A stretch of DNA of 59,356 nucleotides, filler included, from Basidioascus undulatus (lineage: Eukaryota), in assembly GCA_000826855.1 (NCBI GenBank). It is 6 parts of 6 records of this genome, joined end to end, with 100 filler letters (N's around TTAATTAATTAA, not from the genome) between each part and the next. Parts side by side here need not be neighbours in the genome. Positions count along the whole stretch, not along the records: positions 28,050 to 37,284 come from JTLS01001276.1; 5 more parts are not named here. One strand, 5' to 3'. The notes beneath the pieces are model-generated. The model was not told where the DNA came from, did no database searches, and saw only the letters and a list, made by a program, of their open reading frames with translations. The translations under genes and the position numbers were made by a program. Shown in pieces: positions 18,713-45,109 of the stretch. Positions within the stretch are counted from its first letter, which is position 1. Every line of letters starts with the position of its first letter.

Positions 18713-19350
18713 CTCGAACCTGGCATGACCCCTCCGTTCAGCCCGCTATACTCCCTATCCGAGCCTGAACTCAAGGAGCTCTCGACATGGATCCAGGAGA
18801 ACCTCTCGAAGGGGTTCATCCGCGCCTCGAAATCCCCTGCTGGCGCCCCAATCTTGTTTGTCAAGAAGAAGGATGGCTCGCTCCGTCTCTCTGTTGACTA
18901 CCGTGGCCTCAACCGCATCACCGTCAAGAACCGCTACCCCCTTCCCCTTGGAAATCCTCGACCAGATCTGCGGCGCCAAAACCTTCACCAAGCTCGACCT
19001 CCGTGGCGCTTATAACCTCCTCCGTATCAAGTCCGGTGACGAATGGAAGACTGCCTTCCGCACCCACTACGGCCACTTCGAATGCCTCGTCATGCCCTTC
19101 GGTCTCACCAATGCTCCAGCTTCATTCCAGCACCTCATGAACGACATCTCCGTGACATTCTCGACACCTTCGTCCTCGTCTACCTTGATGACATCCTCGT
19201 CTTCTCCCACGACCCAACCCAACATGAAGAACATGTCCGTGAAATACTCCGCTGCCTCATCGCCGATGGGCTCTATGCCAAGGCGGAGAAATGTGAGTTC
19301 TCCAAGGCCTCAACCGAGTTCCTCGGCTTCATCATCACCGCTGACGGCAC
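18713..19350 (+). mobile_element. Ty3/gypsy LTR-retrotransposon reverse transcriptase remnant
   Basis: [84 protein letters not shown]; two frameshifts; ends before RNase H. Confidence 0.95.
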
Positions 19351-21255
19351 AGTGTCTGAGATCTAGCTGAGGGTTCTGTTGTGCCCCCTGGCAACGAAGC
19401 AGCAGGCATCAGCCCTGAGTATGCAGAAAACTGCTGGGGAAAATGAACAGGTACGTACCACCCCAAGCGTTCTATGGCAGGTGATTTAATGTAATGTGAA
19501 GTGCAAGATAGTGCGAAGTCAGCCAGGAAGTTGAGATGATGATAGTGAAGCGCAAGTGGTGAAATATCAAGCTACTACTGGTTGTGATGCAGTCACCACA
19601 CTGGGGCACAGCTCCTTACAGGAATTGCATATGCTGCCATTTTGCACTCATGACTTTCACACTGGCCTCCTTCTTCCGATATGATGCTCCGCAGATAACA
19701 TGCTGGAACAGCTGCGGCAGCACTGCACTGGTGCTATGGATACACATTTTCTGTAACATGGTCAGCACTGCGAGCCAGTTGCAAAGTGTCCCTCAGTTTC
19801 CTTTGAGACAGTCTCCCTTTCTCTTGCCTCTCCTTTGAAGTAGCTCCCCTTATCTTGCCTATCTTTGTTCTTGCCTACCTTTGTCCCAAAGTTCTATGTA
19901 AGTCTCTCATTCCCCTCTGGTTCGAAGGACAGCCTCAGCAGCCTTAGCCAATGTTCTAGCCCAGTTCTCACTCCCTAACCTCCCAATACACTGCATCGAC
20001 CCCGATACCCTGAATTGCACTGTGCCTACACACCACACTGTGCAACAGTTTCCTTCTTGTCCATGAACAATGCTTTGGGTGCATTTCACCAACTCATCAT
20101 ACACGGAGGGACTGCCAAAGAAATCAAACGGTATGAGGGAACATAAGATTTTTATACAAGCTAGATTTCCTCTCAAACAGTCCTCAGATGCCGCTGGGAT
20201 GCAGTGACATCCAGGTGTAGTCTGTCAATCGCACCTATGCAAAGTGAAAATATCCCGTCTCCATGCTACCATTTCCTATCAGTACCTGTATGATATGCAG
20301 AACATTACATCATTCACAGGCGGTCCAGTTATCCAAAAACTATGGCAGAAGAGTGCAGGAAGCTGTGACACACAGCATTGCCCACCAAACACCCTGGCTT
20401 TGCCACTGATGTGCTTCGGAAGTGACTTCATGGGTACTTACAATCTGCCGGACATCCAACGAACGTCCATGGAGGCCGTACACTGTCCATGGACTTCGTG
20501 AAATGCTATAACGCGAATACTAATTTATACTAAACTACACTCTTGGCTATGAAGAATGCCAAAAACAAGAACACAGAAGGTTTGAGGCATGAAAATCTAA
20601 ACAGCTTCCACGTCTAGGCTGCAAGACGTGACTTCCGTTCAGCTTGAGCAAGCCTGGGTTGATTGATTTCCTAAATGATCGTCGAGGGTAGCAAGGCGAA
20701 GGGAAAATTCAAGGCGATACTACTTTGCCGGCGCCTTGATGGAGGGTGCATCGCCGACCCGCCGCGTCGTCCCTTGTCAATTACCCCGCTCGCCTTTCGT
20801 GCTCCTCCCTTGTCATAATGTAAGGAGACAGCCGCAACGAGGATAGATTCCGAAACAACCTTCACATTTTCCCCATCTGTCCCGCTGGGCTTGCGTTTCG
20901 CTTGTCCGGCAGCTAACTTTTAGCACCTACTTGGCCGCCTCACATGAATATCCGCATGGGTGAGCAGCTCCCCCTTCGCCCGTCCCCCTGTTCCAGCATC
21001 CGCGCTGCATCATAATGATTTCGAAGTCTCGTCATTGATCCGAGTTTCGGTGCTGCAGAAACGGTTACGCCTTTGTTTACTATTGCTATATCCCCACCGG
21101 ATGCAGTCTCCACCGGATGCAGTTTGACATAGACTGTTGTGTATAGCCACAGTGGGTAGTGTCCCACGAAGATCCGCATCCCGTCCCTTCAGGTCCTTGT
21201 CCTCCTATATTAACCTCTCGTCTCCGCTTGCTACTATCTGCAGCACCCTTTCACA

Positions 21256-28049: not shown

Positions 28050-28125
28050 TAGTATAGTGGCTAGTATATCCGCTTGTCATTCAACCTGACCGCGGGCGAC
28101 CCGGGTTCAATTCCCGGCCAGAGAG
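28050..28125 (+). tRNA. tRNA-Asp(GTC) with ~11-nt intron; 5' acceptor strand lost at contig start
   Basis: TAGTATAGTGGCTAGTATATCCGCTT-GTC-A[ttcaacctgac]CGCGGGCGACCCGGGTTCAATTCCCGGCCAGAGAG followed by TTTTT. Confidence 0.88.
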
Positions 28126-29087
28126 CATCTTTTTACTTGTCTTTTTTCACTCGACAAGTGCTCGATGCCTTACCACGATGTTTCGGCTGTGTCTTCGCAT
28201 GTGTCGGGAACGCTAGAGGCCTCGTGGTGTGGGGACGCACTTCTCCGAATGCCTAACCTTACCCAAGCCGCTGTTCACGGCTGCGCCTGGCTTAACAAGC
28301 AACAGCTGAGCGGCCTCTTTGAGATTCGTGACTGACGCACCTGCGCTGCGCCAAATCATCCTAAGATTCAATGTGGACACGGCGCTCCGTGACTACAACA
28401 AGACTTCTCGGAGATCGTGACTAGTGCGTTACCTAAGGTCGTCTAAGCCAATGTAGTTGTCATCGCACATACTAAGCTGAAAGAAGGCTGACGTTTCCTC
28501 GATTGCATCGTTGATGGAACACTGTGGGAGCTGAAGGAGTAGGTGGACGTGGAGTTCTCTTTCGAACGCTTTTGACTGTTCCCTTCGTTCTATAGCGCTG
28601 CTTGAATGTACCCAATGCAGACCGTAGCCTGTAGGGCTGGACTGCTGACCCGTCGCTGCACCGCACAGCCGTTTCCGCGCTTCACCCAAATCGAGAGTAC
28701 TTCCAGGCTCGACGTGCTCAATCTGCATCTGTTTCATGATTTTCGCATTCAAGAGATCCACATCAACAACACTGTTTCAGTCTTCGTGTGAAGTGTACTA
28801 TCACGTGTAAGACGCCTTCCACCGCTGATCCGCTGATCCCGTCCGCGTGGTCCTGTCATCTTCCATCCACCGCCGTTATCTCCGCCCGATTCGACGCCAT
28901 GCCCAACGACGAGCACGCATCTTCCCTCGAAATTCTCATCAAGCTTTTCACCTTCTCGCCACTCAAACCCCCTCGGACAAGCTCCCTTGACCACTGACAT
29001 CCTCGTACACTCGATCGATGTCAATCATCCTCTCATCATCTTCCTCGTTCTCGAATTCCGCATCCTCCACCACACCACCTTCCAGCG

Positions 29088-30572
29088 TGCCGCCCACCCC
29101 ACCTCGCTCAAGCGTCCCTCTTCCGAAAATTCTTATCCTCGGCCCGCTCTCCTCTTCTGCGAACGTCCAGTCCCTCCTCGGCGCCCTGCGCAGACTCTGC
29201 GAGCCACACACCGTCCCCTTCGGTCCCACGCGCGCCGACACAGCGCGCAACATCGCGCATGCGGTGGAGGAGGAGGGCCCATTCCTTGCGTGCTTGCTGA
29301 GCGCTGCTCGGAGCATATCGCACAGCTTGTCCCGACGGACGCGGAGCTGCTGGGCCCGCTGAAGCCGGCGTGCCGGTTCTTTACGGGGCCAGGAGCGGGT
29401 GCGTTGAGGTTCCTGAGGGAAAGGGCTGAACGAATGAGAACTGATGGTAGGCGGGGGCACAGGTTACGACAAGTTTGATTGTGCTTGGGCGGAATCTTTC
29501 GGGGCGTCGTATGCGAACTCGCCCTCAGCAGTCGTGCGTCTTCCTTGCCCTCGCCCCCGCTCCCGCTCCCTTCGCGCCTTCTTCCCCCTTCCCTTTGACG
29601 CCTCCCTACCCTCTTCAGACGGAACCAACAGCCACCGCCACTGTCCTCCTCATCCTCTCTATCCTGCGAAACCACGTCCCGAACGATGCTGCTGTCCGCG
29701 CGGGGTACTGGAAGGAAGGCGAGGTGCTCGGCCGCGAGCCGCGCGGACTTGTGCTTGGGCTGGTTGGATTCGGGGCGATCGCGTGGGTGCGTGTGGATTG
29801 CGAAGTAGGGGGTGGAAAGTGGGCAGGAGGCTGATTGCGTTGTGGGCGGAGCAGGTAGTTGCGGAACGCTTGGCAGTGTTCGGGATGGAGGTACATTACC
29901 ACTCTCGCCGGAAAGTTCCTGGGACGGGTGCGCTGCTCCACCCTTTTCTTCTTTCAGCCGTCTCACTCTTCCTCTCCATATCATCTTCCTTCCTAGACGT
30001 CCTCAACTACATGTATCACCCAACGCTCTCCTCTCTGCTCTCCCAGACAGACGTCCTTTCCCTCCACTGCCCCCTCACGCCCTCAACGCACCACCTTATC
30101 GGAGCCCCCGAGCTCGTGCAGCTCAAGCCGGGCAGTTTCGTGGTCAACACCAGTCGGGGGGGCGGTAGGTCTATCCTTTCTCTTTCCCGCCTTTCCTGCC
30201 TTACGCATTGCGTCGCTTACTCTTGCGCGAGCAGTGCTGGATGAGCAAGCGCTCCTCGAAGCGCTGGATACGGTGCACATCGCGCGAGCCGGTCCGCCTT
30301 TCCCCCACCGCCTCCCCACATCTCCACTCACCCTTTCTCTTCTCCCAGGGCTCGACGTCTACCCCACCGAGCCTCCGCTCCACCCCTCCCCCCTCCTCTC
30401 CCACCCGCGCATCACCCACTCCCCACACTCAGGCGCGTCCGTCGAGGGCCTGGCAGCGGCGATGGATGCGGAGATGCTGGGGAACGTGAAGGAGTTCTTG
30501 GAGCTTGATCGGAAGGACAATTTGTTGGGTCCTGTGAGGAATATCGTTGCGGGCCCGTTGAGGGAGGGTTGA
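29088..30572 (+). CDS. D-isomer-specific 2-hydroxyacid dehydrogenase (glyoxylate reductase-like)
   Basis: GA|GYDKFD, YANSPSAV|TEPTA, LGLVGFGAIA (NAD-binding), DVLSLHCPLTPSTHHLIG, VVNTSRG, GLDVYPTEP, SPHSG; several introns; start codon uncertain. Confidence 0.88.
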
Positions 30573-31371
30573 GGCGGGCGGGAGGGGCGCAGGGGAGTTG
30601 GTGTAGAGGTTGCTGGATTTGGAGTTTTTTTTGCGTGCTTGGAGAGCGTTTTCGCATTATTGCTGTTTCTTCCTTCTCAGATTTGGGACGGATGGTAACA
30701 TCGATGTTTTCCAGATCCCAGAGTGCCAGCAGCTGGGCATCCGGCGTGACCCCGCCCCTCGATCATCTTCTCGAACTTTCCTCGACCCTTCCTTTCTGAA
30801 TAACGTCTTGTGCAATAAAACCTTTGTTACCTCCGCGGGGCCGGACGCTTTACGAATGTGCAGCCGCCGGGAGGCCGCCGCATGTGACGCGCTGTCTTCC
30901 TGCGTGGCACAGCCGCGATAGCCGCGGTGATGTATACTACGCGTCTGAAAATGGAGCTCGCATTCATGTCTTGCTCTAGCACTCAGCACGTACTTCAGCC
31001 AGAGTTCTGTTACGGAATAGCATCTTGCGGCGACGATGGTGACTGCAATACAAGTTCACACTCCGAGGGCAGAACCTCACCCACCACAGGCCGAGGGAGA
31101 GCCTTCAAGCTTGTCGAGCATCTCGTTCCCCTCCGCGCCGTGTTCTTCCGGAAGGGTTCCGGAAGGGCGACAGCTTTCTCCCTCAACGACCTGGGTGCGA
31201 GTGCGGGTGGAGGACCCGATGAGCCAGTCGACCGAGGCGTGCTCATGAGCGGGCGCGCGGAGTTTATCGCACTTGCTACGTGCTGCACGACCGGGTTCAT
31301 GGCCGGTTGGGTCAGTCGCTTCGACTCTTCTTTAAGCACGAGGTAAGCTTAACCATTTTTTTGTTTCCAAA

Positions 31372-32055
31372 ACAGAGCGACGCCAGTACCGGACCTATTC
31401 TTCCGAGACTGCAGGATGTTTACGATGTACGATGTGCGTCGCGGCAGTAGCGTTGACGTCCACGAAGATACTGATTTCACTCCCCCCCCTTCTTCTCCCT
31501 TGCCGTACAGCTGTCAATTGTTGTAGTTTCAATTCTCTTCATCTCCAACTTTATCGGTGTGGGCTCTGCCTGACTCGAGAGCTAGCCAGTCAGTCAAAGC
31601 TGACTCGCAGCACGTTGCCAGGCTTCCTCATCGCTGCGCTCTGCAACGTCTGGCTAACTGACCGGTTCGGATTCGGCAAAGTGCGCAATAACTTGCCTGG
31701 TTCTGATTTATCGCACCTTTGATAACCCTCGACTCATGCACATGCGCAGGTCATAGTGGCCGCCTGCGCGATGCAGCTCCTCTCTTACAGCCTCATGTGC
31801 TGGGCGCCGCCCTTCGCGCTTCTCTCCTCGGCTACGCCCTAAACGGTTCTCGATCGGCCTCCAGGACGCACAGTCAAACACGTTTCTTTCCGGCCTCCCA
31901 AACGCGCCGACAAAACTCGGCTGGCTACACGCCATCTACGGTGCGCCTTTCCTTGCTCATACGCGCCCTCTTGCTCTTGTCTGGCACACGAGTTGGGGCG
32001 TTCTGTGCCCCACGTGCGGCCACCCACTTTGCGCATATGTCGCGCTGGTCGTCAG
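31372..32055 (+). pseudogene. Decayed N-terminal half of an MFS transporter (FucP/Bsc6-like)
   Basis: SDASTGPILPRLQ, GFLIAALCNVWLTDRFGFGK, IGLQDAQSNTF..LGWLHAIYG|VGAFCAP; frameshifts; broken off at ~32055. Confidence 0.7.
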
Positions 32056-32400
32056 GACCTTGAGCTCAGCCATGTGAGCAATGGTCTTGTCCTTGGCCGC
32101 GAGCTGCTTCAGGAGCATCTGCCACTCGCTGTGGTCTGGTCGGGTGGCCAACTCTGCTTGGAGTAAGAAGCAGTGTCCCCTGAGGGACTGGTTCTGCTCA
32201 GAGAAGGCTTTTATGTTCTCCAGCGGGTGCAGGCTGCGACTAGGGTGGTCAGGTCGGCTGGAGTCGAGAGAGGGTGGGTAGTGGGGGTGGGAGTGGTGCG
32301 ATTCGGAAGCGGAGGTGATTGAGCGGGAGCGTAAGGGGAAAGTCGGGGTTTTGACGACGATGAGCGCTGGTTATCTGAGGGGCGTTGGGAAACATGGTTC
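32055..32400 (-). mobile_element. Possible retroelement gag/ORF1 coiled-coil fragment
   Basis: Pro/Thr-rich run then frameshifted ENIKAFSEQNQSLRGHCFLLQAELATRPDHSEWQMLLKQLAAKDKTIAHMAELK; no diagnostic motif. Confidence 0.3.
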
Positions 32401-32957
32401 TGCGTGGTGGGGTAACGACCCGTGTCGTATAGAGCGACCAGTGACCTCAGGTTTGTCCTGAAACAGGAAATTCGATGCGCCAGCGGCCTTATATGTACAT
32501 TTCTCGGTTTGTCTTTTCCGCCACCCTCAGTTACCTGAAGAGGCTTTCCATCGCTCGCCACTTGTGCATGAAGGCGGGCGGTAAGCCATCTGAGGAAGGG
32601 GTCTCGGCCTTCAGGACGTCCATGGAAGTGCCTATTGTTTTCCTCCCTGTATAAGTCTATCCCATAGCGGCTAAGATCCAGACCCGGCGTGTAGCAGGGC
32701 TGCATTTTCCCCGCAATGCATCGCAACACTCGGCGCTTCACAACCGGCCTGTGCTGCGTTTCCTATCCATCGCTCTCAACCAACCGGGCCGATTTCAGAA
32801 CCAGTGAGTGAGAAGTCAATGACCCGGTTCCCAGCACCTTTGTACAACGCTCACTTCGATTCAAACTGAACCTGCCCTCGACGCCTGCATGGCACCCTAT
32901 GACGCCTTCGACTGTACAAGCATTGGCCCGGGACAGCCTCACCTTCCTACCTGTACA

Positions 32958-33845
32958 TCATATCGCAGCCCGCACCAAGCCCGCACGCACCCAAATACCG
33001 TCGTACAGGGCGCATGCTCGGGCAGTCCCCGCGACCGAGGTCGCGTCGTACAGTGACGGGGCTCCGTGAGGGTGTGAGGGTCGTGGGTTCTCGCACGCCT
33101 CCCTCCCTGAGCACATCTCAAAGTACTGGCCGAGGGTCACCCGGTTGAGCACAGCAGAGGTGGACATTACCATGTCAAACCTCACGGGCTGCTCATTGTC
33201 GTCCACTGTGAAGGGCATATCGTGTTCTGGCCATATCCGAAGCACACCCTTCTGTCCGTGAGGGGTGGAGATCTTGTCGCCAGTGACCGGAAGCCCATAC
33301 CTCTCCACCTCTACCCTCACGTCACCTGCGGCCGTTGTGGACTTTGAGACTACAATGCCGTCGCACTCCTCCAGCGACACAGTGTCCTCCCCTACGTGTC
33401 TCACTAGCGATGACCTCTGCTCACGTCTGCGAGGGTAGCACTTCCACCACGGGTGCTCGGTCATGCGTACCCTTCCCCCTACCTCGGGACACGGCTCACT
33501 TGCCATGAGGATGTGGGTACTTCGTGAAGTGTACGAGAAGAGGCCTCTGTCTATGGCTGCCTGGGAGACCATGACCGCGTCCTCGTAGTTGTCGCCGTAG
33601 CTCGCCAGACACATGACGAGGTCCTCCCCCGGTGGGCACTGCACCAGGCCTATCTCTGGGTCGTCAGGCATATCCTTCATCAGCTTCTCGCCCATCGTCG
33701 TGTAGGTGAGCGGCTTGGACACATGAACCGGAGCTATGAGGGAGGATGCCACCTGGTGAGGAGCACACACCGCCTGGGGGCCCTGCACCGCTGCAAGTAA
33801 AGTCCTAGGGGGTCTGTCTGAAGTGAGGAACGGAATGAGGCTGAA
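32958..33845 (-). CDS. Highly divergent two-barrel RNA polymerase second-largest (RPB2/beta) subunit fragment, intronless; probably of viral or mobile-element origin
   Basis: Frame open from the stop at 33846-33848: SLIPFLTSDRPPRTLLAAVQGPQAV (~[26 protein letters not shown]), PGEDLVMCLASYGDNYEDAVMVSQAAIDRGLF (~GYNQEDS..NQSSIDRGLF), GDKISTPHGQKGV (~GDKFASRHGQKG), HDMPFT, DMVMSTSAVLNRVTLGQYFE (~DLIINPHAIPSRMT), LYDG. Confidence 0.9.
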   Translation of the reverse strand, partial: FSLIPFLTSDRPPRTLLAAVQGPQAVCAPHQVASSLIAPVHVSKPLTYTTMGEKLMKDMPDDPEIGLVQCPPGEDLVMCLASYGDNYEDAVMVSQAAIDRGLFSYTSRSTHILMASEPCPEVGGRVRMTEHPWWKCYPRRREQRSSLVRHVGEDTVSLEECDGIVVSKSTTAAGDVRVEVERYGLPVTGDKISTPHGQKGVLRIWPEHDMPFTVDDNEQPVRFDMVMSTSAVLNRVTLGQYFEMCSGREACENPRPSHPHGAPSLYDATSVAGTARACALYDGIWVRAGLVRAAI

Positions 33846-34719
33846 TCAAGGGGAGGAGATTTTTGGTGATTATTCCTCAGGTCTTGGTGGAATCCACGGT
33901 TTTGACCCTCCAAATTCGAGAACGTTGGTGAAGTCTGGGTTGAGACGGACGGGGTGGAGGGGTGAGGAACCGACCGACGGCCTCGACGGGAACAATGTAC
34001 GATGGGGAGATTGAAAATGACTTTATAGTGATTCTCTAGGATGGCATGGCAAGAGTGTCAATCTGGCTAGCGGGCTCTATTAGTTTGATAGGCGCACCAA
34101 GCTGTAGGAGCTAGAGGGTTCGTGGAACATAGAAGCTTGCGCTGAGTGCGATGATATGATTGCTTTGTGAGGTCCTGCTGCAGTTGTACTCCCATCTACT
34201 CTGCATTCTAGGCTTCCGTTCAGGCCCAGTGCATTCCGAGGAAGGGTAGTCAGTGGGGAACCGAACGTCAGTCCACGCCTAGCGATGGGTGTGCTCTCCT
34301 CCTCTACCAAAGTTATAGCATCTGAAGTGCTCAATAGGCTGTAATATTCATTTCCACTCTGATTTATTCACCTTTTTACCACCTCACAGCTTGCACGGAC
34401 TGCAAGGGTGCATGCGTCCTGGCGCTGCCGCCGAATGGCCCCCACCTTCCTGCGAAGGTGTTGCTACACAACAACTAATCTAAACTGATACGATACAGCT
34501 CATAGGAGCAAAGATATATGAGAAAATGAGGTAGCTAAGAGAAAATGAAGGAGGGAGTTTGTGTCATCTTTTGACCGACTGCATCCGCATCCGATCGTCT
34601 TCTGATTGTCAACGGTCCTCATTGGAATCAGCGTCTTCTCTCCTCTTCATCCCTTTAATCTACCACACATGATTTCTTGGGTATTGGGCACTCTCCCGCA
34701 CATGCTCTCCTGCCTATTG

Positions 34720-35300
34720 ATGAGCAGGGTGTCTTCCGGAACCGGAAGTACCGCCAACCCCCATGCCCCGCGGCCGAAGGACGACGAACACCTTTCTCCC
34801 GACCCCTTCGAGGAGGAGCTGGCCGCACATCAAGCCGTCATGAAGCACTTGCAAGTCCTTCTAGAGTGCGCGGCGGCTGAGGAAAAGCGGTGGACCCGCT
34901 GAAGGCGGAGAACAAGCTCGAGGCAGAGAGGCAGGCGCAGCGGAGGACCAGAAGCTCGCTGCGGAATACACCAAAGTAGCCGCGCAGTAGGGTCGGATGC
35001 CTGATGAGTAAACGCCCTGACGCCGCGCCAGCGGGAGCGGACGCAGGTCCGCGAGGTCGAGGCGGTCTCCATGGCTAGGAGACCGCAGATCCACCTGGCG
35101 GAAAGGCTGCGGGGGAACTGGAGCGCGCGACGTCCAATCTCGAGGAGACTGGAAGAGCTCGGCAGAAGGACGCGTGAGATTGAGGAAGAGCGGCGCGTCC
35201 TCGAGGACGAGGGGCAGGCCCGTGAGAGGACGGAGCGCATTGCGGACAAGGGGGTGAAGGACTTTATCGATGAATACGGAAGGTTGCGCGAAAGAGCCAA
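34720..35300 (+). pseudogene. Decayed coiled-coil gene, copy 1
   Basis: EELAAHQAVMKHLQVLLECAAAEEKR, then stops/frameshifts, then LEELGRRTREIEEERRVLEDE; DNA similar to 36975-37140. Confidence 0.55.
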
Positions 35301-35436
35301 GGTAGGTGTTCGCTGTTCGTTCAGAATCCAAAGCAGACCAATGCCTGCTGAAAACCGCTTCGAAACAGGCGTGGCAACCCAGCCGACTGCTGCAAGCTGA
35401 CCCTTCAACGTGGTCGCTTAGCTAAATGGGGTTTCT

Positions 35437-36189
35437 GTGGACTCAAAGAACCTGTGCAGGAAAAGACATTTGTGTGCATCGAAAGAATGTGGACAGCGCC
35501 TCGCGTTGTTACTCGGGGTGCGAGATGCGCCCTATTGGGCGCCCTTACTTTGTGGGTGGCGTGGTGGGGAGAGTGCACAACTGGGGGGTTGTGCGGACAT
35601 GGATGCACTTGGAAAACTCGAAGCGTGGGCGCACCCGGACGTCGCACTTATCCCACTAGGGTCACGTCTCACGGCAGGGACTGGCAAGTCAGTGGTGGTC
35701 ACGTACGACCCCTTGCTGGTGAACTCGAGCAGCGACGTGGCCGCCTTCGACAGTGTTGTGGCAGCGAAGTGGCACGCGAGTGCACTGCTGCCTCCAGGGA
35801 TGACTCCGGGCGAGCTTTGCAGGCTCGTCCTCGCCTGCGGTGGCTACTCGTTGAGGTCCTCCAACTTCCCTAAGGTCGAAGATTCCGTAATAGTGGCCGC
35901 ATGGAGGAAGATAGGCACACTCAGTAAGGTGCTGGCGACCCATGGCCAGTGGATCGAGACGAGTGCCCAGCTCCGTACCGAAACCGGCTTCATGCAGTCG
36001 TTAGGCATCGACGCAGCCCCTTGGTTCCCGGACGCGCCCCTCCTCGCCCGGGATCTAGACTGGCCCGCGGAGGAGATTTTGAAGAACGACGCCCCAATGA
36101 CGGCACACGGGGGAGGGGTATCATATACGCACATGGGGGGGTTAATGAAACTGCAGTCCCTGAAGGACGAGTCAAGTATCGATGTCTAA
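35437..36189 (+). CDS. Orphan intronless ORF (~250 aa), possibly viral
   Basis: Stop-free, globular-looking ORF with no introns, unlike host genes here; converges on another intronless ORF ~90 nt away. Confidence 0.5.
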   Translation: MDSKNLCRKRHLCASKECGQRLALLLGVRDAPYWAPLLCGWRGGESAQLGGCADMDALGKLEAWAHPDVALIPLGSRLTAGTGKSVVVTYDPLLVNSSSDVAAFDSVVAAKWHASALLPPGMTPGELCRLVLACGGYSLRSSNFPKVEDSVIVAAWRKIGTLSKVLATHGQWIETSAQLRTETGFMQSLGIDAAPWFPDAPLLARDLDWPAEEILKNDAPMTAHGGGVSYTHMGGLMKLQSLKDESSIDV

Positions 36190-36275
36190 AACTGGCAGGC
36201 TCCCCACAAACGCCCCGCTTCCCTGGCTCGAGAGCGCGGCCCGTATTGCAGATGCGAGGGCGGAGTATAACTCCG

Positions 36276-36550
36276 TCATTCCCGAGGGCTTGCCGTTAAA
36301 CTGGAGGTTCCTGATCGGCGACATCCCGAGGTAACTGTAGTCCGCGTCACCTTGCGAGATCTGACGAGGTGCCAGCCCCTCTTGCTAGCCGACTGTGTGT
36401 CGAACGTGTACCCTGCGGGTAGGTAGCGTGCGAGGATCTTAAGGCTGTCTATCCCAAGGTAGCAGAGAACTGGATCGTATCCCTCGTACAGGAGCCAGAA
36501 GGTAAGCTTGGAGCCCCTTATGTTGAGGAACATTACGGTGTCACTCGGGT
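36276..36550 (-). CDS. Orphan ORF fragment (5'-truncated), possibly viral
   Basis: MFLNIRGSKLTFWLLYEGYDPVLCYLGIDSLKILARYLPAGYTFDTQSASKRGWHL; intronless, convergent with 35437-36189. Confidence 0.4.
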
Positions 36551-36899
36551 GGCCCGTTGTCAGCCCACGGTCTGTACAATCTCCGGGGACAGCCCTCCGC
36601 CCGTTCTTCCGGCGTTGCTGCTACACATCAGTCAGTCCAAACTGATGCCCAGCTCCGTCTCTTGACCTACGAACTGAGAGAAGAAGGTGGCATAGCGCAC
36701 AGTGACCATGGGCTCCTGTCATTTGTGGATTGTTTGTATTTGAAGTTGGACCCGCATCCGCTCGCCTTCCGACTCCCAACGATGATACCAGCATCTTCTC
36801 TCCCTTCCATACCAACCACTGCCTCACATGCTTTCCTACATACTAGGAACCCTCGCGCACATGCTGTCCTGCTGGCTGTTGAGCTGTATGTCACCTGGA

Positions 36900-37284
36900 C
36901 TTGGAAACACTGAAGAAATCTGCGCAGAGAGTTGAATCGAAGCGCTGCAGCGTAGGTGCCCCTGCCCCCCCCCAGGAGGCGCTGGCCGAGCCAGAAGCCG
37001 CTGTTACGCAGGCCTACATCCTTCTAAAATGCGCGGAGGCAGAACAAAAGCTGTCGAACGGAACTCGGCACGCTGTGGGAGCTCGCGGCCGAGCGGCAGG
37101 CGCTCGCGGCTGAGGACCAGCAGCTCGCGGGTGAGTACCGCAGGTTAGCTGTGACGCCGCTGTGCGCGGCATCTGGACACGTTCGACTCCGAAGAGCAGC
37201 TGCTCGAAAAAGACGAGCATCGTGACGTGCCGAGCCTCCTGAAAAAGAAAAGGTGGGCTTAAGGGTGAGCAGCCGGAACTTTGT
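36900..37284 (+). pseudogene. Decayed coiled-coil gene, copy 2
   Basis: EALAEPEAAVTQAYILLKCAEAEQKL, frameshift, ELAAERQALAAEDQQLAGEY; paralogous to copy 1. Confidence 0.55.
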
Positions 37285-40386: not shown

Positions 40387-43300
40387 GTGTGAATAGCAAT
40401 ATCAAGGAAAAGCGTTGTGCAGTTCTCACCATTTTCCTCTGTCGTCAGGGCCGCTGTCAAGGGATTGTGCGACGCGTTCACACTAGGTCTCTGCTCGTAA
40501 GTCTCAGCCCCCCTAAGTTTAGAAATAGGGCCGCTGAAAATGACTGTTACATAATTTCATTGCGGACGGCGGCGCGCCTTCCGGCAGCGGTTGATTGAAC
40601 CCCTCGAGCGGGAAGGAGTGTCGAGCAACTGTTTTGCCTTGGTCACAGTCTTTTTATTTTGTAGAAGAACTTTTTCCTTATTTCCCAACCCATAACATGA
40701 ATTGTATCTCAGCTTTGCATGCAACGCCGCTAGTGGGTTGTGAGGGTGAAAAGGAGCGCGTTGCTTTGGAGGACGCTTATGGCTCGCTCACAGCCCAAGC
40801 CTCCTCAATGTGACTCCAGATCGAGCCACCAGAAACTCCCATGCTATTTCGAGTGGTAACTAGTCACCTTGAGCGGGTTCCAGTAAATAAACATCGAGTC
40901 AATTAAGCCTCTGACTTCCCAAATATCAGGTTGAATGAAGGGAGCGGCAAGTGCGAAACAAGGGGATTTGGGAGTGATCACACTGACCAACTCGGAGTGA
41001 GACCGAGAGGGGTTAAAAAAAACCAATCCGCCCAAAGCAAAAGGATGAATGTAGGGCAGCTGCACAGACTGTCCATCCTGGGATGGTTCCTGGGTCTTAA
41101 ACAGACCAAGATGGGCTGTACCCTTCAGGGAGCGCAAACAGGAGATGTGAGATGGCATGGGCATATTTGTAGGACGCGGTCGTGATATCCCAGAGGGGAT
41201 TGCAGCACCTCAACTGCAAGAAGTGAGTGGGCATAAGCTGTGATGCTTGAACTAGGGATCTCAACAGGTACCGGACATTCCGCCCCGCTGGGTTCGCACG
41301 GGTCGACGAGTCTCATTTTGACAGGCCCGACTCGACCTGTGCAGCACGGGTTTGGCCAAACCCGACTCTCTGTGACCCGTACCAGCCAGTGACTACGGGG
41401 TGTTCCAGCTGTGGGACTTTCTAAATTATCAAATTTCAAATTTGAGGGGAATGGGGCCATCGCTGGCGCGCGGCAAGTTTCGATTCCCTTTTTCTGGTAA
41501 CCTGGAAGCGTCATGGATGCATCGCAAGAATTGTTTGGAGTTGGGGTGGTTACCAGCGCATGGGGGCATGAGAGCACTGCTAGAAGCTTCCAATGGGACT
41601 GAGGCTGGGAAGAGCTGTCCAGAATGCCGCAAGGCTGACACTGGTCACCGGCATCCCTTCCATGAGAATGCATTCAATGCCAGCAAATGAGCTGTGCTCA
41701 TGTTCATTCTGTCCCATCTTCTATGATCCATTGGTCCACATTAAGAGCAGAAGATGTTCTGAGTGACAGTGAGCTGGTTGAGCAGCAAGAGTCTGTAGCG
41801 CCTTCACTGCCTTACCGCATTACAGGAAACCCGATGGGCTCCTCTGACACATGTTGATAGTATATGTACGGAAGAAACTGGTATCCTTTCAAAAATTGCT
41901 ACCAGAAAACTCATTTCATACCAACGAACTACAAGGCCTGCACAGTAGACAAGCAAGAGAAGCAAACAATCACTCAACACAGTTGGGCTGTGTCAGTGAT
42001 CATGTTGCATCTGACAATCAATTCATGTAATCCAGACCTTTTGTTGTGGCTGAATGTGTTTTTTGGAGGCTTTGTGACATCTTGAATGTTCAGACCAGCA
42101 TCAGCTGCACATCAGCTGCACCATTTTCTGTGGGTCCTTCTCGCGTCTTCTTCTAGCACTCAATATGCATGCCTGCCCTTCCTCACCCTCCTCTTCAACT
42201 CCAACAAGGCCCAAACAAACCATGGTACTCTTAATCATGCAGTTCTCCACCCCACTCCTCCCACCCCTGTTTCTCCAACCCAGTCTCTCCTTTCTGAGCA
42301 CAGCCGCAATCTCCCTCCTGTCAATGAACACAATCAAATGCATTTCTCTCCTATTGTCTCCTTCCAACGCAATAGGCTCTCACCTACCACCACCACTACC
42401 ACTTTCCCATCAACCTGATCTCTGTAAGCTACACTGCTTCTTGCCATAAAAATTCCTCTCTGCGTCCGAAAGCCAGCGAAGAAAGATTGAATGCATGAGC
42501 AAAGGTAAAGCCGAAAGGGAAAGAAAGACTAACCAAGCCTACGCAACTGAAAGGCAAGAATTCACAATGCATGTGAACTGCTGACGCACACGGAAGCCAA
42601 TTCAGGGGAATCGGGAAATTTGAGTGAAAGGCTTGACTGCAAAGGACACTAGAGCCTTGACCAAGTAAAAACTAATAAAATTTATAAGTATTTCAGAACA
42701 GTATATCCAATTCCGTCTCCCTGAGGCTTCAAAACAACCTGAGTCTCAATCTGTGGCACGCAGCTTAATGAAGACAATTCAGTGTGCGTCCTACCATCTG
42801 TTCAGATAGCTTTTCAGGATTATATTCAATAACTGGGTGTACATGTCAAGGTCAGGGACTTTTTAGATTCAGAAAGATAGGCAGTCTCACGAGTCTTGTC
42901 ACTTTCGTAAAGAAAACTCTTATAACACAACCGTACTTTCATGACAGCACTAGCGGCTTAAGCAGTCCTACAGAGACATCAGTCGAGAATATTTATCAAT
43001 AACAGTGGGACAGTAACAGTCAATTGGCTGAGCAGTCAGTTGAGTCGAGATTGAGCATGCTGGCAAACTGATGAAGGCAATGGCAGTCACAGTCCTGAGA
43101 GCACACAGATAGCTTCGAGATAATTCAATGTATTGTTCCACTAACTATTCGGGTACAGAACATAGATGTAAGGTTAGAGATATGAGCTAAAGAAGTGAGT
43201 GGCAAACTGCTAGTACTCTCTCCTCTGCTGAGCCCCAGGAAAGGCTGCTTCCTTTATGCAAAATTGGCCTCCACTCCTGACTAGATCACATTCCTCACAT

Positions 43301-43694
43301 TCCCTCCAAGATTCTACATTATGTAATTTTTCAGTCATACCAAGAGAAAGAGAGGTTACCAGGCCAGTTCCGAGAGCCCAGCTGACCTGTTGCCTGAGAG
43401 TCCACAGATTTCGCTTTCCCAGTTCTTTTCCGCCTGAAATTCCGTAGGTCTTGTAATGTTGTGTTAAAATACAGTTTGAAATAGCCTACAACCAGTTCTA
43501 AGTTTGGAGTAAGACAATGAGTTATGAAGATACAGGCAATTTCATCCTGAATTTGCCACAGTGCCCAGCTGAGACACAGCGCATCATCGTGGTGGAGCTG
43601 TTTTCTGAGGTTTCTGCCCTTCCTTGCCACAATACTGAAAGTAAAAGTAATATATTCGAATCAGATACAAAATAATTTGTAGAGATACTCTAAT

Positions 43695-44060
43695 TAGGGG
43701 GCTAGAAACTTACAGGCGCCACAGTGTAGACCAGCCGCAGACCAGGTGTGGGAAGCAGGGAAGTCCCGGAAAAGGAAGTGAGGAGGTGAGAACCCTGAAA
43801 AAGGAACAAGTAAGTATAAAAGCGCTGGAAAAAGGAGCACAGCCTTGGAAAAGGAAGCGCAGACTTGGAAAAGGAAGCACAAGTTGGGTGCAGAGATAGG
43901 GAAGCACAAGTCTGGTGCAAAGAAAGCACCAGTGGGCACAAGCAACTCGACTGCAGGTGGGTGCAAGCGACTGCAGGTGGGTGCAAGCGACTGCAGGTGG
44001 GTGCAAGCGACTGCAGGTGAGTGAAAGTGACTACAGGTGGGTGCCAGCAACTAGCCCCTA
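43695..44060. mobile_element. MITE-like element (~366 bp)
   Basis: Ends TAGGGGGCTAG ... CTAGCCCCTA (inverted, possible TA target duplication); non-coding, internally repetitive. Confidence 0.6.
43948..44047 (+). repeat. 20-bp tandem repeat, 5 copies
   Basis: (cgactgcaggtgggtgcaag) three perfect plus two decayed copies; GGAAAAGGAAGC-like units upstream at 43787-43905. Confidence 0.92.
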
Positions 44061-44431
44061 CAGGTGGGCACATGCAGGTACTCAGCAGGTATAAAGAAAC
44101 ACCACCCTCCTTTCACTGACTCCCACCTTACCAGCACCTTGCCCTGCAGTAAGGCAGGTGCAGAGTTCACTGTGTGCTCCTTAGTCTCCCAATGGACAAG
44201 TGTGATAATGGACAATATGAAGTGCCTTTCCAAGCCTGGAATGCTTCCCATAGTAGTTTTCTGAACCCTTGGACTTCCTACTTGTGCAATTAATGAGTAT
44301 TTGTGGTTCAAATGCCTGCATCTGCAGGGCACTGGCCAGCATCAATATTTTGCCCAGGTAAGCTGTGTGCAATGCTTACTGGTTCAGTGAACTTCCTTTG
44401 TTGTTTTCACGCACTCCTTCGTAGAAGATGT

Positions 44432-44690
44432 CAAGATCATCATAGCCTTTCTGTCAAACAATCCCTCAAGTTAACCATTCAGAAGTTGAAGTAGCTCAAT
44501 GGGCAACCTTCAATCATCATTACTGGGAAGGGCAAGCATTCAGCAAATGGGTGAAAGATCAAGTCTGCAATTATGAAGCTTTTGCAGAGGTGAGCCACTT
44601 TTGGGATTAATACATAGTATATCAAGGCTGACTTGGATGTGATAGTATGGGTGGTGGTAGATCCTACAAATGAGGGTCACCTGATTGTCC
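44432..44690 (+). pseudogene. Smr (small MutS-related) domain pseudogene
   Basis: DHHSLSVKQSL (~DLHGLxVxEA)...K*LNGQPSIIITGKGKHSANG*KIKSAIMKLLQ|..DPTNEGHLIV; two in-frame stops; retains an intron. Confidence 0.7.
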
Positions 44691-45109
44691 CTGGGTCAAA
44701 TAGCCACATTTGGGTGGTGAGGAGCTTGAGTGAACCTGTCTGACAAACTAAGTTTTGCAATGCATGCATTTTTTCCCATAAACTTGTAATGCTTGCACAG
44801 GTGTTAGGTGTGCCTGCTTGAGGTGCGTGTGAGCTGAGTGGGAGACCTAGTGTCATGAAGAGCCACTTTTGCCTAATTAGACATTGTTTGAAACCAATGT
44901 GGACAGAGCCAACTGAGATCTTGTGTGGCCATGAGTAAGGTACAATGAGTAGAGTAGGACAGGGCAGTCACTGAAGCTGAGTCTCCATAGCAATACACTG
45001 GAGAAAGGGTAGGGAAGGGAGGCAGGCAGTTTGCGGGAGTACTGCCGAACATTGAGAGGGGCCTTTGGGCCAACTGGAAGCAAAGAAAGGGGTAATGTAA
45101 AAAAAAGAA

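Follow-up and report, generated by a model that had tools for sequence, protein, structure and literature searches.

A truncated RPB2-like gene in nuclear DNA of Basidioascus undulatus: a probable relic of a compact DNA element with its own RNA polymerase

The cytosolic linear plasmids of yeasts and early-diverging fungi, or pGKL2-type virus-like elements (VLEs), are the nearest functional analogue of the sequences described here, although they are not members of the same family. VLEs have been described as compact fungal elements, capsid-less as far as is known, with a capping enzyme, a helicase and a reduced two-barrel RNA polymerase (RNAP) in which the spacers separating conserved beta regions are shortened (PMC6211774, PMC13348850). 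In the same accounts their hosts are yeasts, Mucoromycota and Zoopagomycota, and VLE fragments are reported as captured in nuclear genomes (PMC6211774, PMC13348850). The RNAP is characterized there by a defining beta-beta' fusion (974 aa) and a 132-aa subunit (PMC6211774), and the DNA polymerase as protein-primed and fused to the terminal protein, with a helicase of superfamily II (PMC6211774, PMC13348850). Fungal endogenous elements resembling nucleocytoplasmic large DNA viruses (NCLDVs), the 'fundsalphaviruses' of Gong et al. 2020, are a further parallel, as they too comprise viral RNAP genes present as broken nuclear inserts (PMC7017919). These were found by their family-B DNA polymerase (PolB) and are described as having full RPB1, RPB2 and RPB5 genes that group with those of NCLDVs, in phyla other than Dikarya (PMC7017919). 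Here we analyse a stretch of 59,356 nucleotides from Basidioascus undulatus (assembly GCA_000826855.1; six parts joined by filler, hereafter the window), in which positions 28,050 to 37,284 come from record JTLS01001276.1. Positions 32998-33845 of the window are probably a dead, truncated piece of the RPB2-like gene of a compact double-stranded DNA (dsDNA) element, recently captured in a nuclear chromosome of this fungus-like eukaryote.

The original prediction placed a stop-free RPB2-like frame at 32958-33845, and this frame was confirmed: 295 codons on the minus strand, between a TGA at 33846-33848 and a stop at 32958-32960. All of the motifs that had been named are present in the stated order, namely TSDRPPR (residue 8 of the 295-codon frame), QGPQA (residue 21), YEDA with its ED pair (residue 87), DRGLF (residue 99), GDK (residue 189), HGQKG (residue 196), STS (residue 228) and LNRVT (residue 233). 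We presume that the ED pair and the lysines of GDK...HGQKG have their textbook catalytic roles. The length of the frame is by itself ordinary, as 6 of the 284 stop-to-stop frames of at least 90 aa in this G+C-rich window reach 295 aa; its significance comes from homology, not from length. The frame matches Rpb2 domain 6 in Pfam (PF00562; E 6.3e-19, with 68.8 bits where the cut-off is 23.4) and 73 distinct PDB sequences at E <= 0.01; all among the matches listed are RNAP second-largest subunits, the top one being an archaeal RNA polymerase subunit B (E 1.7e-12). On sequence grounds we assign the fragment to the superfamily of RNAP second-largest subunits (RPB2/beta), with the catalytic motifs in order. 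The spacer between RGLF and GDK is 85 residues, as had been claimed. The same interval is some 40 residues longer in archaeal subunit B (query residues 65-109 and 161-251 against chain residues 713-758 and 851-938), so that the conserved blocks lie closer together than in the archaeal protein, which supports the earlier remark that the spacer is short.

A search of proteins of similar length returned 1 relative of the fragment, and a search of longer proteins returned 52 at E <= 1e-3. The 33 relatives P0002-P0034 measure 630-864 aa and share 33-44% identity with the fragment (E 1.7e-62 to 8.9e-24); the only Rpb2 domain that Pfam recognizes in them is domain 6, sometimes together with domain 7. 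The next matches, from E 1.4e-11, have five to seven Rpb2 domains each and are canonical subunits, mostly of ~1000 aa or more. Identity of the fragment is 38-45% to the family and 42-45% to its best members, versus 27-30% to canonical RPB2s. The fragment is accordingly classed by its matches in an unnamed family of reduced RPB2-like proteins of ~835 aa (typical range about 800-860 aa). A family profile, A1, was built from 24 members; among 1.84 billion representatives it matched 166 clusters (50% identity) at E <= 1e-30, and the 150 listed all have E <= 5.8e-34. Pfam detects the C-terminal half of the proteins only, with Rpb2 domain 6 (PF00562) in all 24 members and domain 7 (PF04560) in 19 of the 24, and no other domain. 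Named members are hypothetical proteins of Aspergillus hancockii, of Hirsutella minnesotensis and of a Circinaria calcarea metagenome-assembled genome, on contigs of 12-26 kb. The available records suggest an association of the family with Dikarya fungi. No family member was found in IMG/VR, which yielded only NCLDV RPB2s at 21-29% identity. Likewise, we found no description of the family in the literature, nor papers naming HIM_11634, BBP40_010724 or Q9187_001231, in a search that covered few subscription journals.

An AlphaFold model from A1 (mean predicted local distance difference test [pLDDT] score 73, predicted template modelling [pTM] score 0.71) gives alignments of 730-1060 columns to archaeal subunit B and to eukaryotic RPB2, RPC2 and RPA2 (E about 1e-27). 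Matches to the RPB2s of pithovirus-like viruses, mimivirids, poxviruses and ascoviruses range from 2e-28 to 3e-26, and those to baculovirus LEF-8 reach about 1e-10 to 1e-11. As modelled, the family is predicted to be a complete but shortened second-largest subunit, with a fold that scores nearer to the NCLDV and cellular subunits than to LEF-8. The LEF-8 proteins of baculoviruses and nudiviruses are also reduced beta-like subunits (~850-900 aa) in which nothing but the C-terminal catalytic motifs stands out. We considered and rejected membership of the family in this group, because the Pfam LEF-8 model matches 0 of the 24 members at E <= 0.01 and the structure matches are far weaker (1e-10 versus 1e-28 for NCLDV and cellular subunits). 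A separate observation concerns two metagenome contigs that are 92-95% alike and hold a short family RPB2-like frame with an internal gap (L089 3044-3673 and L090 249-776). The frame in L089 adjoins a DUF6699 gene (PF20415, 2e-27) and has the appearance of a second such nuclear relic, from a different fungus; neither contig has DNA likeness to the window.

The integrated piece itself comprises 848 bp (32998-33845, minus strand), equivalent to about codons 414-696 of a gene of ~840 codons, and spans the hybrid-binding and active-site region with the ED pair and GDK...HGQKG. The last ~13 codons of the stop-to-stop frame (32958-32997) are host-side sequence that is in frame by chance. The left junction (32997/32998) falls within the Gly codon of an LYDG motif, the frame across the loose contig end at this point having been read by eye; at the right junction (33846-33848, minus strand), the TGA directly upstream of the fragment marks the start of host DNA. 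That the gene is cut at both ends, as originally proposed, is borne out by the family profile, which matches the window only at positions 408-666 of 830 (E 5e-93), with no other profile piece, positions 1-407 included, at E < 0.1 in the six frames of the window. Similarly, tblastn of 34 family proteins matches the window only at ~33845-33036 (protein residues ~414-694). The N-terminal ~410 codons are absent from the window, as are the C-terminal ~140 codons, which include Rpb2 domain 7 and the zinc ribbon; the window thus holds the middle third of the gene and no other part of it. The N-terminal lobes, domain 7 and zinc ribbon of a complete subunit are all lacking from the fragment. Since the N-terminal half and the C-terminal clamp and zinc ribbon are missing, the fragment cannot make a polymerase subunit.

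Three public sequencing runs, which we term X1, X2 and X3, contain the insert region; X1 and X2 come from two studies, and X1 and X3 from one sample. Loose contig ends occur at 33845 in X2 and X3 and at 32998 in all three runs. An assembly chimera or contaminant might be suspected, as both DNA-like runs are fragmented into short contigs over the central part of the insert. This breakage occurs because a similar copy exists, and contigs of both X1 (records 1 and 8) and X2 (records 9 and 15) run from host to insert on both sides with 0-1 differences, covering 31400-33123 (X1) or 31400-33114 on the left and 33693-35400 on the right. As the junctions are bridged by contigs of two studies, the insert is not an assembly artefact, and we regard a chimeric or contaminant origin, against which the original prediction had cautioned, as vanishingly improbable. 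There are no notable direct or inverted flanking repeats and no tandem repeats around the insert (30500-36500, 30000-37000). The piece is foreign, truncated, flanked by host DNA and without element neighbours; it is a nuclear insert of extrachromosomal or viral DNA, of the type termed endogenous viral element or nuclear sequence of plasmid and viral origin. In a tblastn search with 296 open reading frames (ORFs) of the family loci described below, no other element gene was matched in the window except for one weak match, between L087 7936-8850 and window 34337-34441 (E 0.004). This pair was found again by phmmer on a small target set; the L084 homologue had no match, and we rejected the pair as due to chance. 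L082 2133-3050 matched window 36175-36384 at E 0.0018, also on a small target set.

Two phylogenies were constructed from the region from profile position 400 onward, with rows picked out of 269 candidates that span profile positions 450-650 by a greedy filter on identity, and the others left out. The 85-row tree (IQ-TREE in quick mode, posterior mean site frequency model) includes 66 family rows and 16 canonical rows, the latter comprising three cellular or canonical proteins (a named fungal RPA2, one from a red alga and an unnamed one) and 13 NCLDV-type sequences, which were drawn from IMG/VR and metagenome loci and include an unnamed representative. A branch of length 1.9 parts these 16 rows from the family and the fragment, with 100% support in the Shimodaira-Hasegawa-like approximate likelihood ratio test (SH-aLRT). 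In the 44-row tree (LG+G4) there is again a branch with 100% SH-aLRT support between the family with the fragment and the NCLDV and cellular RPB2s (11-16 rows in the two trees), and the fragment is sister to a clade A formed by P0003, P0023, L082, P0055 and P0056 (support 96). In neither tree, with their 3 cellular rows, is the fragment nested in cellular RPA2, RPB2 or RPC2. Nor does it group with the RPB2s of NCLDVs; the fragment and its family lie outside the clade of the 13 NCLDV-type and the cellular rows. The trees place the fragment outside the cellular-plus-NCLDV clade, its position within the family varying from one tree to the other, and the non-cellular grouping anticipated in the original prediction is supported by the 100% SH-aLRT branch in both trees, given these 3 cellular rows.

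A decayed paralogue of the second-largest subunit of host Pol I, II or III would account for an RPB2-superfamily sequence in a nuclear chromosome. Such a paralogue is at odds with the higher identity of the fragment to the element family than to canonical RPB2s and with the fully supported separating branch in two trees, thinly sampled as these are for cellular proteins. It is also at odds with the intronless state of the fragment in an intron-dense region and with the presence of a near-identical copy that has an element-type continuation; we consider this origin to be next to inconceivable. Three other sequences in the trees have RPB2 homologues of only 912-928 aa: L001 (IMG/VR, 51.7-kb contig), L092 (92.7-kb contig) and P0193. 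Their match to the family profile starts at about position 238, and they branch off first within the canonical clade (support 99); they may represent reduced forms of an intermediate kind, carried by larger viral contigs.

A longer copy of the gene, ~94% identical to the fragment and continuing past both of its ends, is present in the same runs, and the proposal that the insertion was recent is thereby upheld. Contigs of X2 at a depth of 356-523, against 14.6-19.5 for the flanks (18-36x), match the window at 32998-33845 only, with 4-17 differences each, and diverge from it on both sides of this interval. In a 2666-nt contig of X3 (depth 132), the match to 32998-33845 occupies positions 1374-2221 and shows 51 differences (6%); this is where it is expected if the contig carries a whole gene of ~840 codons. 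The 30-letter continuations at both ends, read by eye, stay open and fit the family consensus (LYDG then xTG; FS.xF..LIP). Among 39 listed differences between the window and the long copy, 31 are third-position synonymous, the other 8 being amino-acid replacements (binomial p 4e-9). All 39 are transitions, with equal numbers in both directions and no sign of repeat-induced point mutation. The synonymous excess and the undirected transitions indicate that the divergence arose in a functional gene lineage, rather than through decay or repeat-induced point mutation; selection on the protein presumably acted in the element lineage.

The longer copy is probably active. X3, which amounts to 15.7 Mb of contigs and whose kind is not on record, has four spliced joints in the neighbouring host gene, as would be obtained from spliced RNA; if X3 is spliced RNA, then the long copy is transcribed. 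We infer its state as a free replicon and its copy number. X1 and X2 also contain further short pieces, of nuclear depth, that match the insert in part only (at 33229, 33483-33647 and 33784); beyond loose ends at 33229, 33483 and 33784 they are unlike it, and the genome probably has more fragments of this gene at other places. Examples include one contig of 2708 nt and one of 854 nt with 3 bases deleted at 33536.

It could be argued that the fragment has been co-opted by the host as a useful peptide or RNA and has kept its open frame for this reason. The absence of a stop over 295 codons and the overlap of a spliced, plus-strand host transcript with the 3' 64 bases of the insert would fit such a role. 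However, the fragment lacks both of the halves that a polymerase subunit requires, it is immediately preceded by a stop, and its first Met comes only at residue 51; in addition, the overlapping transcript is antisense, and X3 has no window-identical contig over 33062-33692. Moreover, a 6% divergence from a live copy is enough to explain the open frame: the frame is open because the fragment is young, with the longer copy still in the same organism. Co-option is therefore very unlikely, and a recently captured, dead fragment remains the reading that we favour.

The gene content of the elements was deduced from eight family loci in JGI metagenomes (L081-L088), the four long ones being 18-22 kb parts of 20-32 kb contigs. 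These four are compact and intron-free, with a G+C of 0.31-0.50 and ORFs densely packed on both strands. Family contigs range up to about 40 kb and in G+C from 0.31 to 0.56, and those of 20-39 kb carry element genes only, without host-like flanks in the parts examined. The RPB2-like gene is found in 4 of the 4 long loci and an RPB1-like gene of ~655 aa, with an invariant metal-binding DFDGD, in 2 (L082 and L086; PF00623, RPB1 chains to 4.9e-14, and alignment); the two are separate ORFs in both L082 and L086. A ~730-aa protein, present in all four, combines an N-terminal TFIIS-type zinc ribbon with an invariant KxDGE and a GxGxG methyltransferase-like motif, and these motifs suggest that this protein is a capping enzyme. 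The TFIIS-type ribbon is fused N-terminally to the protein with the guanylyltransferase (KxDG) and methyltransferase-like motifs in L082 (9677-11914), L084 (16001-18136) and L086 (48-2249); we know of no virus with such a fusion of transcript-cleavage and capping modules.

Genes pointing to replication are also present. A D5-like P-loop helicase was detected in 3 of the 4 loci, and NADAR and RNase H domains likewise in 3; the latter two are fused in L084 (350-1342) and are separate proteins in L082 (316-1479 and 13473-14543). A protein of 525-639 aa in all 4 loci has, by structure search, an N-terminal domain with a uracil-DNA glycosylase (UDG) fold: 12 of the 14 top structural matches are from the UDG superfamily, including mimivirus UNG and vaccinia D4 (Z 6.2-8.3), a reading that depends on a model of low confidence (pLDDT 42.5) and on matches at Z 6-8. 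A profile of this UDG-like protein had 0 matches in the PDB at E <= 1. One locus, L086, encodes a 741-aa family-B DNA polymerase of PF00136 type, which matches both this domain and RNA/DNA-primed PolBs. A shared protein of 388-447 aa has look-alikes in the Atlas, in clusters of 56-214 members that are commonest in Basidiomycota or Ascomycota; it also resembles, less strongly, Gad2/poly(A)-polymerase-type nucleotidyltransferases from giant viruses, which is a lead only. The divergent ORFs of L086 gave no match to the clusters by hhalign, an Atlas search with L086 12006-13187 yielded no usable match, and no convincing upstream motif is shared across the four loci.

Compared with the VLEs as described in the literature, the family has separate genes for the RPB2-like and RPB1-like subunits instead of a fusion, a PF00136-type polymerase (in the one case seen) and a D5-like helicase. 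Likeness to NCLDVs is seen in the separate RPB1 and RPB2, the TFIIS-type ribbon, the capping motifs, the D5-like helicase, UDG, RNase H and the PF00136-type PolB, and NCLDV RPB2s are the best viral structural matches of the family model (E 2e-28). However, NCLDV RPB2s are ~1100-1250 aa with all Pfam Rpb2 domains, whereas the family proteins are ~835 aa with only domains 6 and 7 recognized; identity is 21-29%, the family lies outside the NCLDV-plus-cellular clade, and its contigs are at most ~40 kb. Pfam also detects no double jelly-roll major capsid protein or A32-type packaging ATPase in the four loci, which are partial records with many ORFs unassigned. In contrast to the 'fundsalphaviruses', the family is a separate, reduced lineage linked to records of Ascomycota and Basidiomycota. 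The gene content recognized would be compatible with either a virus or a plasmid as donor.

It is also conceivable that the long copies are chromosomal, so that the donor is an integrating element, such as a large transposon or an integrated provirus-like element, of which the genome has several copies and the window a broken one. In X1 a third variant of the long copy, distinct from the X2/X3 variant, which is unseen in that run, stands at a depth of 44-48, about that of the flanks (44-49), and this depth indicates that a high-copy episome is not uniform across runs. The short pieces at nuclear depth with their three loose ends, the further relic beside the DUF6699 gene in a metagenome contig, and the failure to see terminal structures in the family would also agree with chromosomal copies. 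Set against this, the 20-39 kb family contigs contain element genes and no host-like flanks in the parts examined, over a G+C range of 0.31 to 0.56, and no integrase or transposase was found by Pfam in the ORFs of the four loci. In addition, the X2 contigs stand at 356-523 against flanks of 15-20, and the synonymous excess shows selection on the lineage of the long copy. A chromosomal element is, on this evidence, unlikely.

Besides the depth in X1, several other points weigh against the favoured reading. Contig depth is not copy number. No run is recorded as RNA, and the RNA-like nature of X3 rests only on the four spliced joints. Sampling of cellular Pol I, II and III in the trees is thin (the 3 rows of fungal RPA2, red-algal protein and unnamed protein), and the 85-row tree puts the fragment outside clade A, at the family's base beside the long branch to canonical RPB2 (support 92, unstarred). 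PolB was found in one locus only, most records being covered in part, and no capsid, packaging ATPase or terminal repeat was recognized in ~79 kb of family DNA, again from partial records. Nevertheless, the suggestion that the fragment is a relic of an apparently undescribed, RNAP-encoding DNA virus or element is supported by the grouping of the family, the element-type contigs, the junctions and the long copy.

We propose that donor DNA was joined into a nuclear chromosome in the manner of organelle, plasmid or virus DNA that is captured at chromosome breaks; the insert lies next to a spliced gene of the host, on its 3' side. The donor would have its own transcription machinery, consisting of the ~835-aa RPB2-like protein, the ~655-aa RPB1-like protein and the TFIIS-ribbon protein with capping motifs. 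It may also have replication genes in the form of a D5-like helicase, a UDG-fold protein, RNase H and, as seen in one locus, a family-B polymerase. This gene set would be that needed for expression outside the host Pol II system. The donor may be extrachromosomal, cytoplasmic and transcribed.

The surroundings of the insert are those of eukaryotic nuclear DNA. By their Pfam domains, housekeeping genes in the window are split over several frames, and those recognized encode a 2-hydroxyacid dehydrogenase, Med31, a ubiquitin-like protein, PAPS reductase, Pkr1 and a zinc-finger protein. The nearest recognizable host gene upstream is the D-2-hydroxyacid dehydrogenase gene at 29438-30569 (plus strand, in two frames; PF02826, 1e-16 and 1.1e-05). 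The spliced host transcript region defined by the joints of X3 lies at 31400-33061 (plus strand) and skips 31434-31510, 31556-31620, 31681-31749 and 32804-32920; its last piece (32921-33061) extends 64 bases into the insert, antisense to it. The four skips are of 65-117 bases, three being GT..AG as written and the fourth after a one-base shift of the cut. The description of the host genes as intron-dense thus holds, with four intron-like skips within 1.5 kb beside the insert and domains split over frames. Elsewhere in the window, a reverse transcriptase domain (PF00078, 7e-12) in a 213-aa frame at 18729-19367 (plus strand) represents a retroelement remnant, 14 kb from the insert. The G+C is 0.44-0.46 at 42001-45000, against 0.56 for the whole window, and the ORFs tested there had no Pfam match.

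In summary, a fragment of a single gene leads to a family of at least 166 clusters with its own polymerase, capping and replication genes and with records linked to Dikarya. A broader possibility, on which we consider the balance to be even, is that active dsDNA replicons of ~20-40 kb, which transcribe themselves and have a minimal NCLDV-like core (PolB, D5-like helicase, UDG, reduced two-subunit RNAP and capping enzyme), reside in this organism and in many Ascomycota and Basidiomycota. These would form a deep, undescribed lineage between the giant viruses and elements of the yeast killer-plasmid type, the first for filamentous Dikarya, and the window would hold a recent fossil of one that is still resident and transcribed. 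If they are live replicons, the known mobilome and virome of the best-studied fungi would be widened, a new reduced two-barrel RNA polymerase would become available for study, and there would be a bearing on how the yeast linear plasmids relate to giant viruses. The insert, together with a resident donor, would provide a test case for the entry of such DNA into fungal chromosomes.

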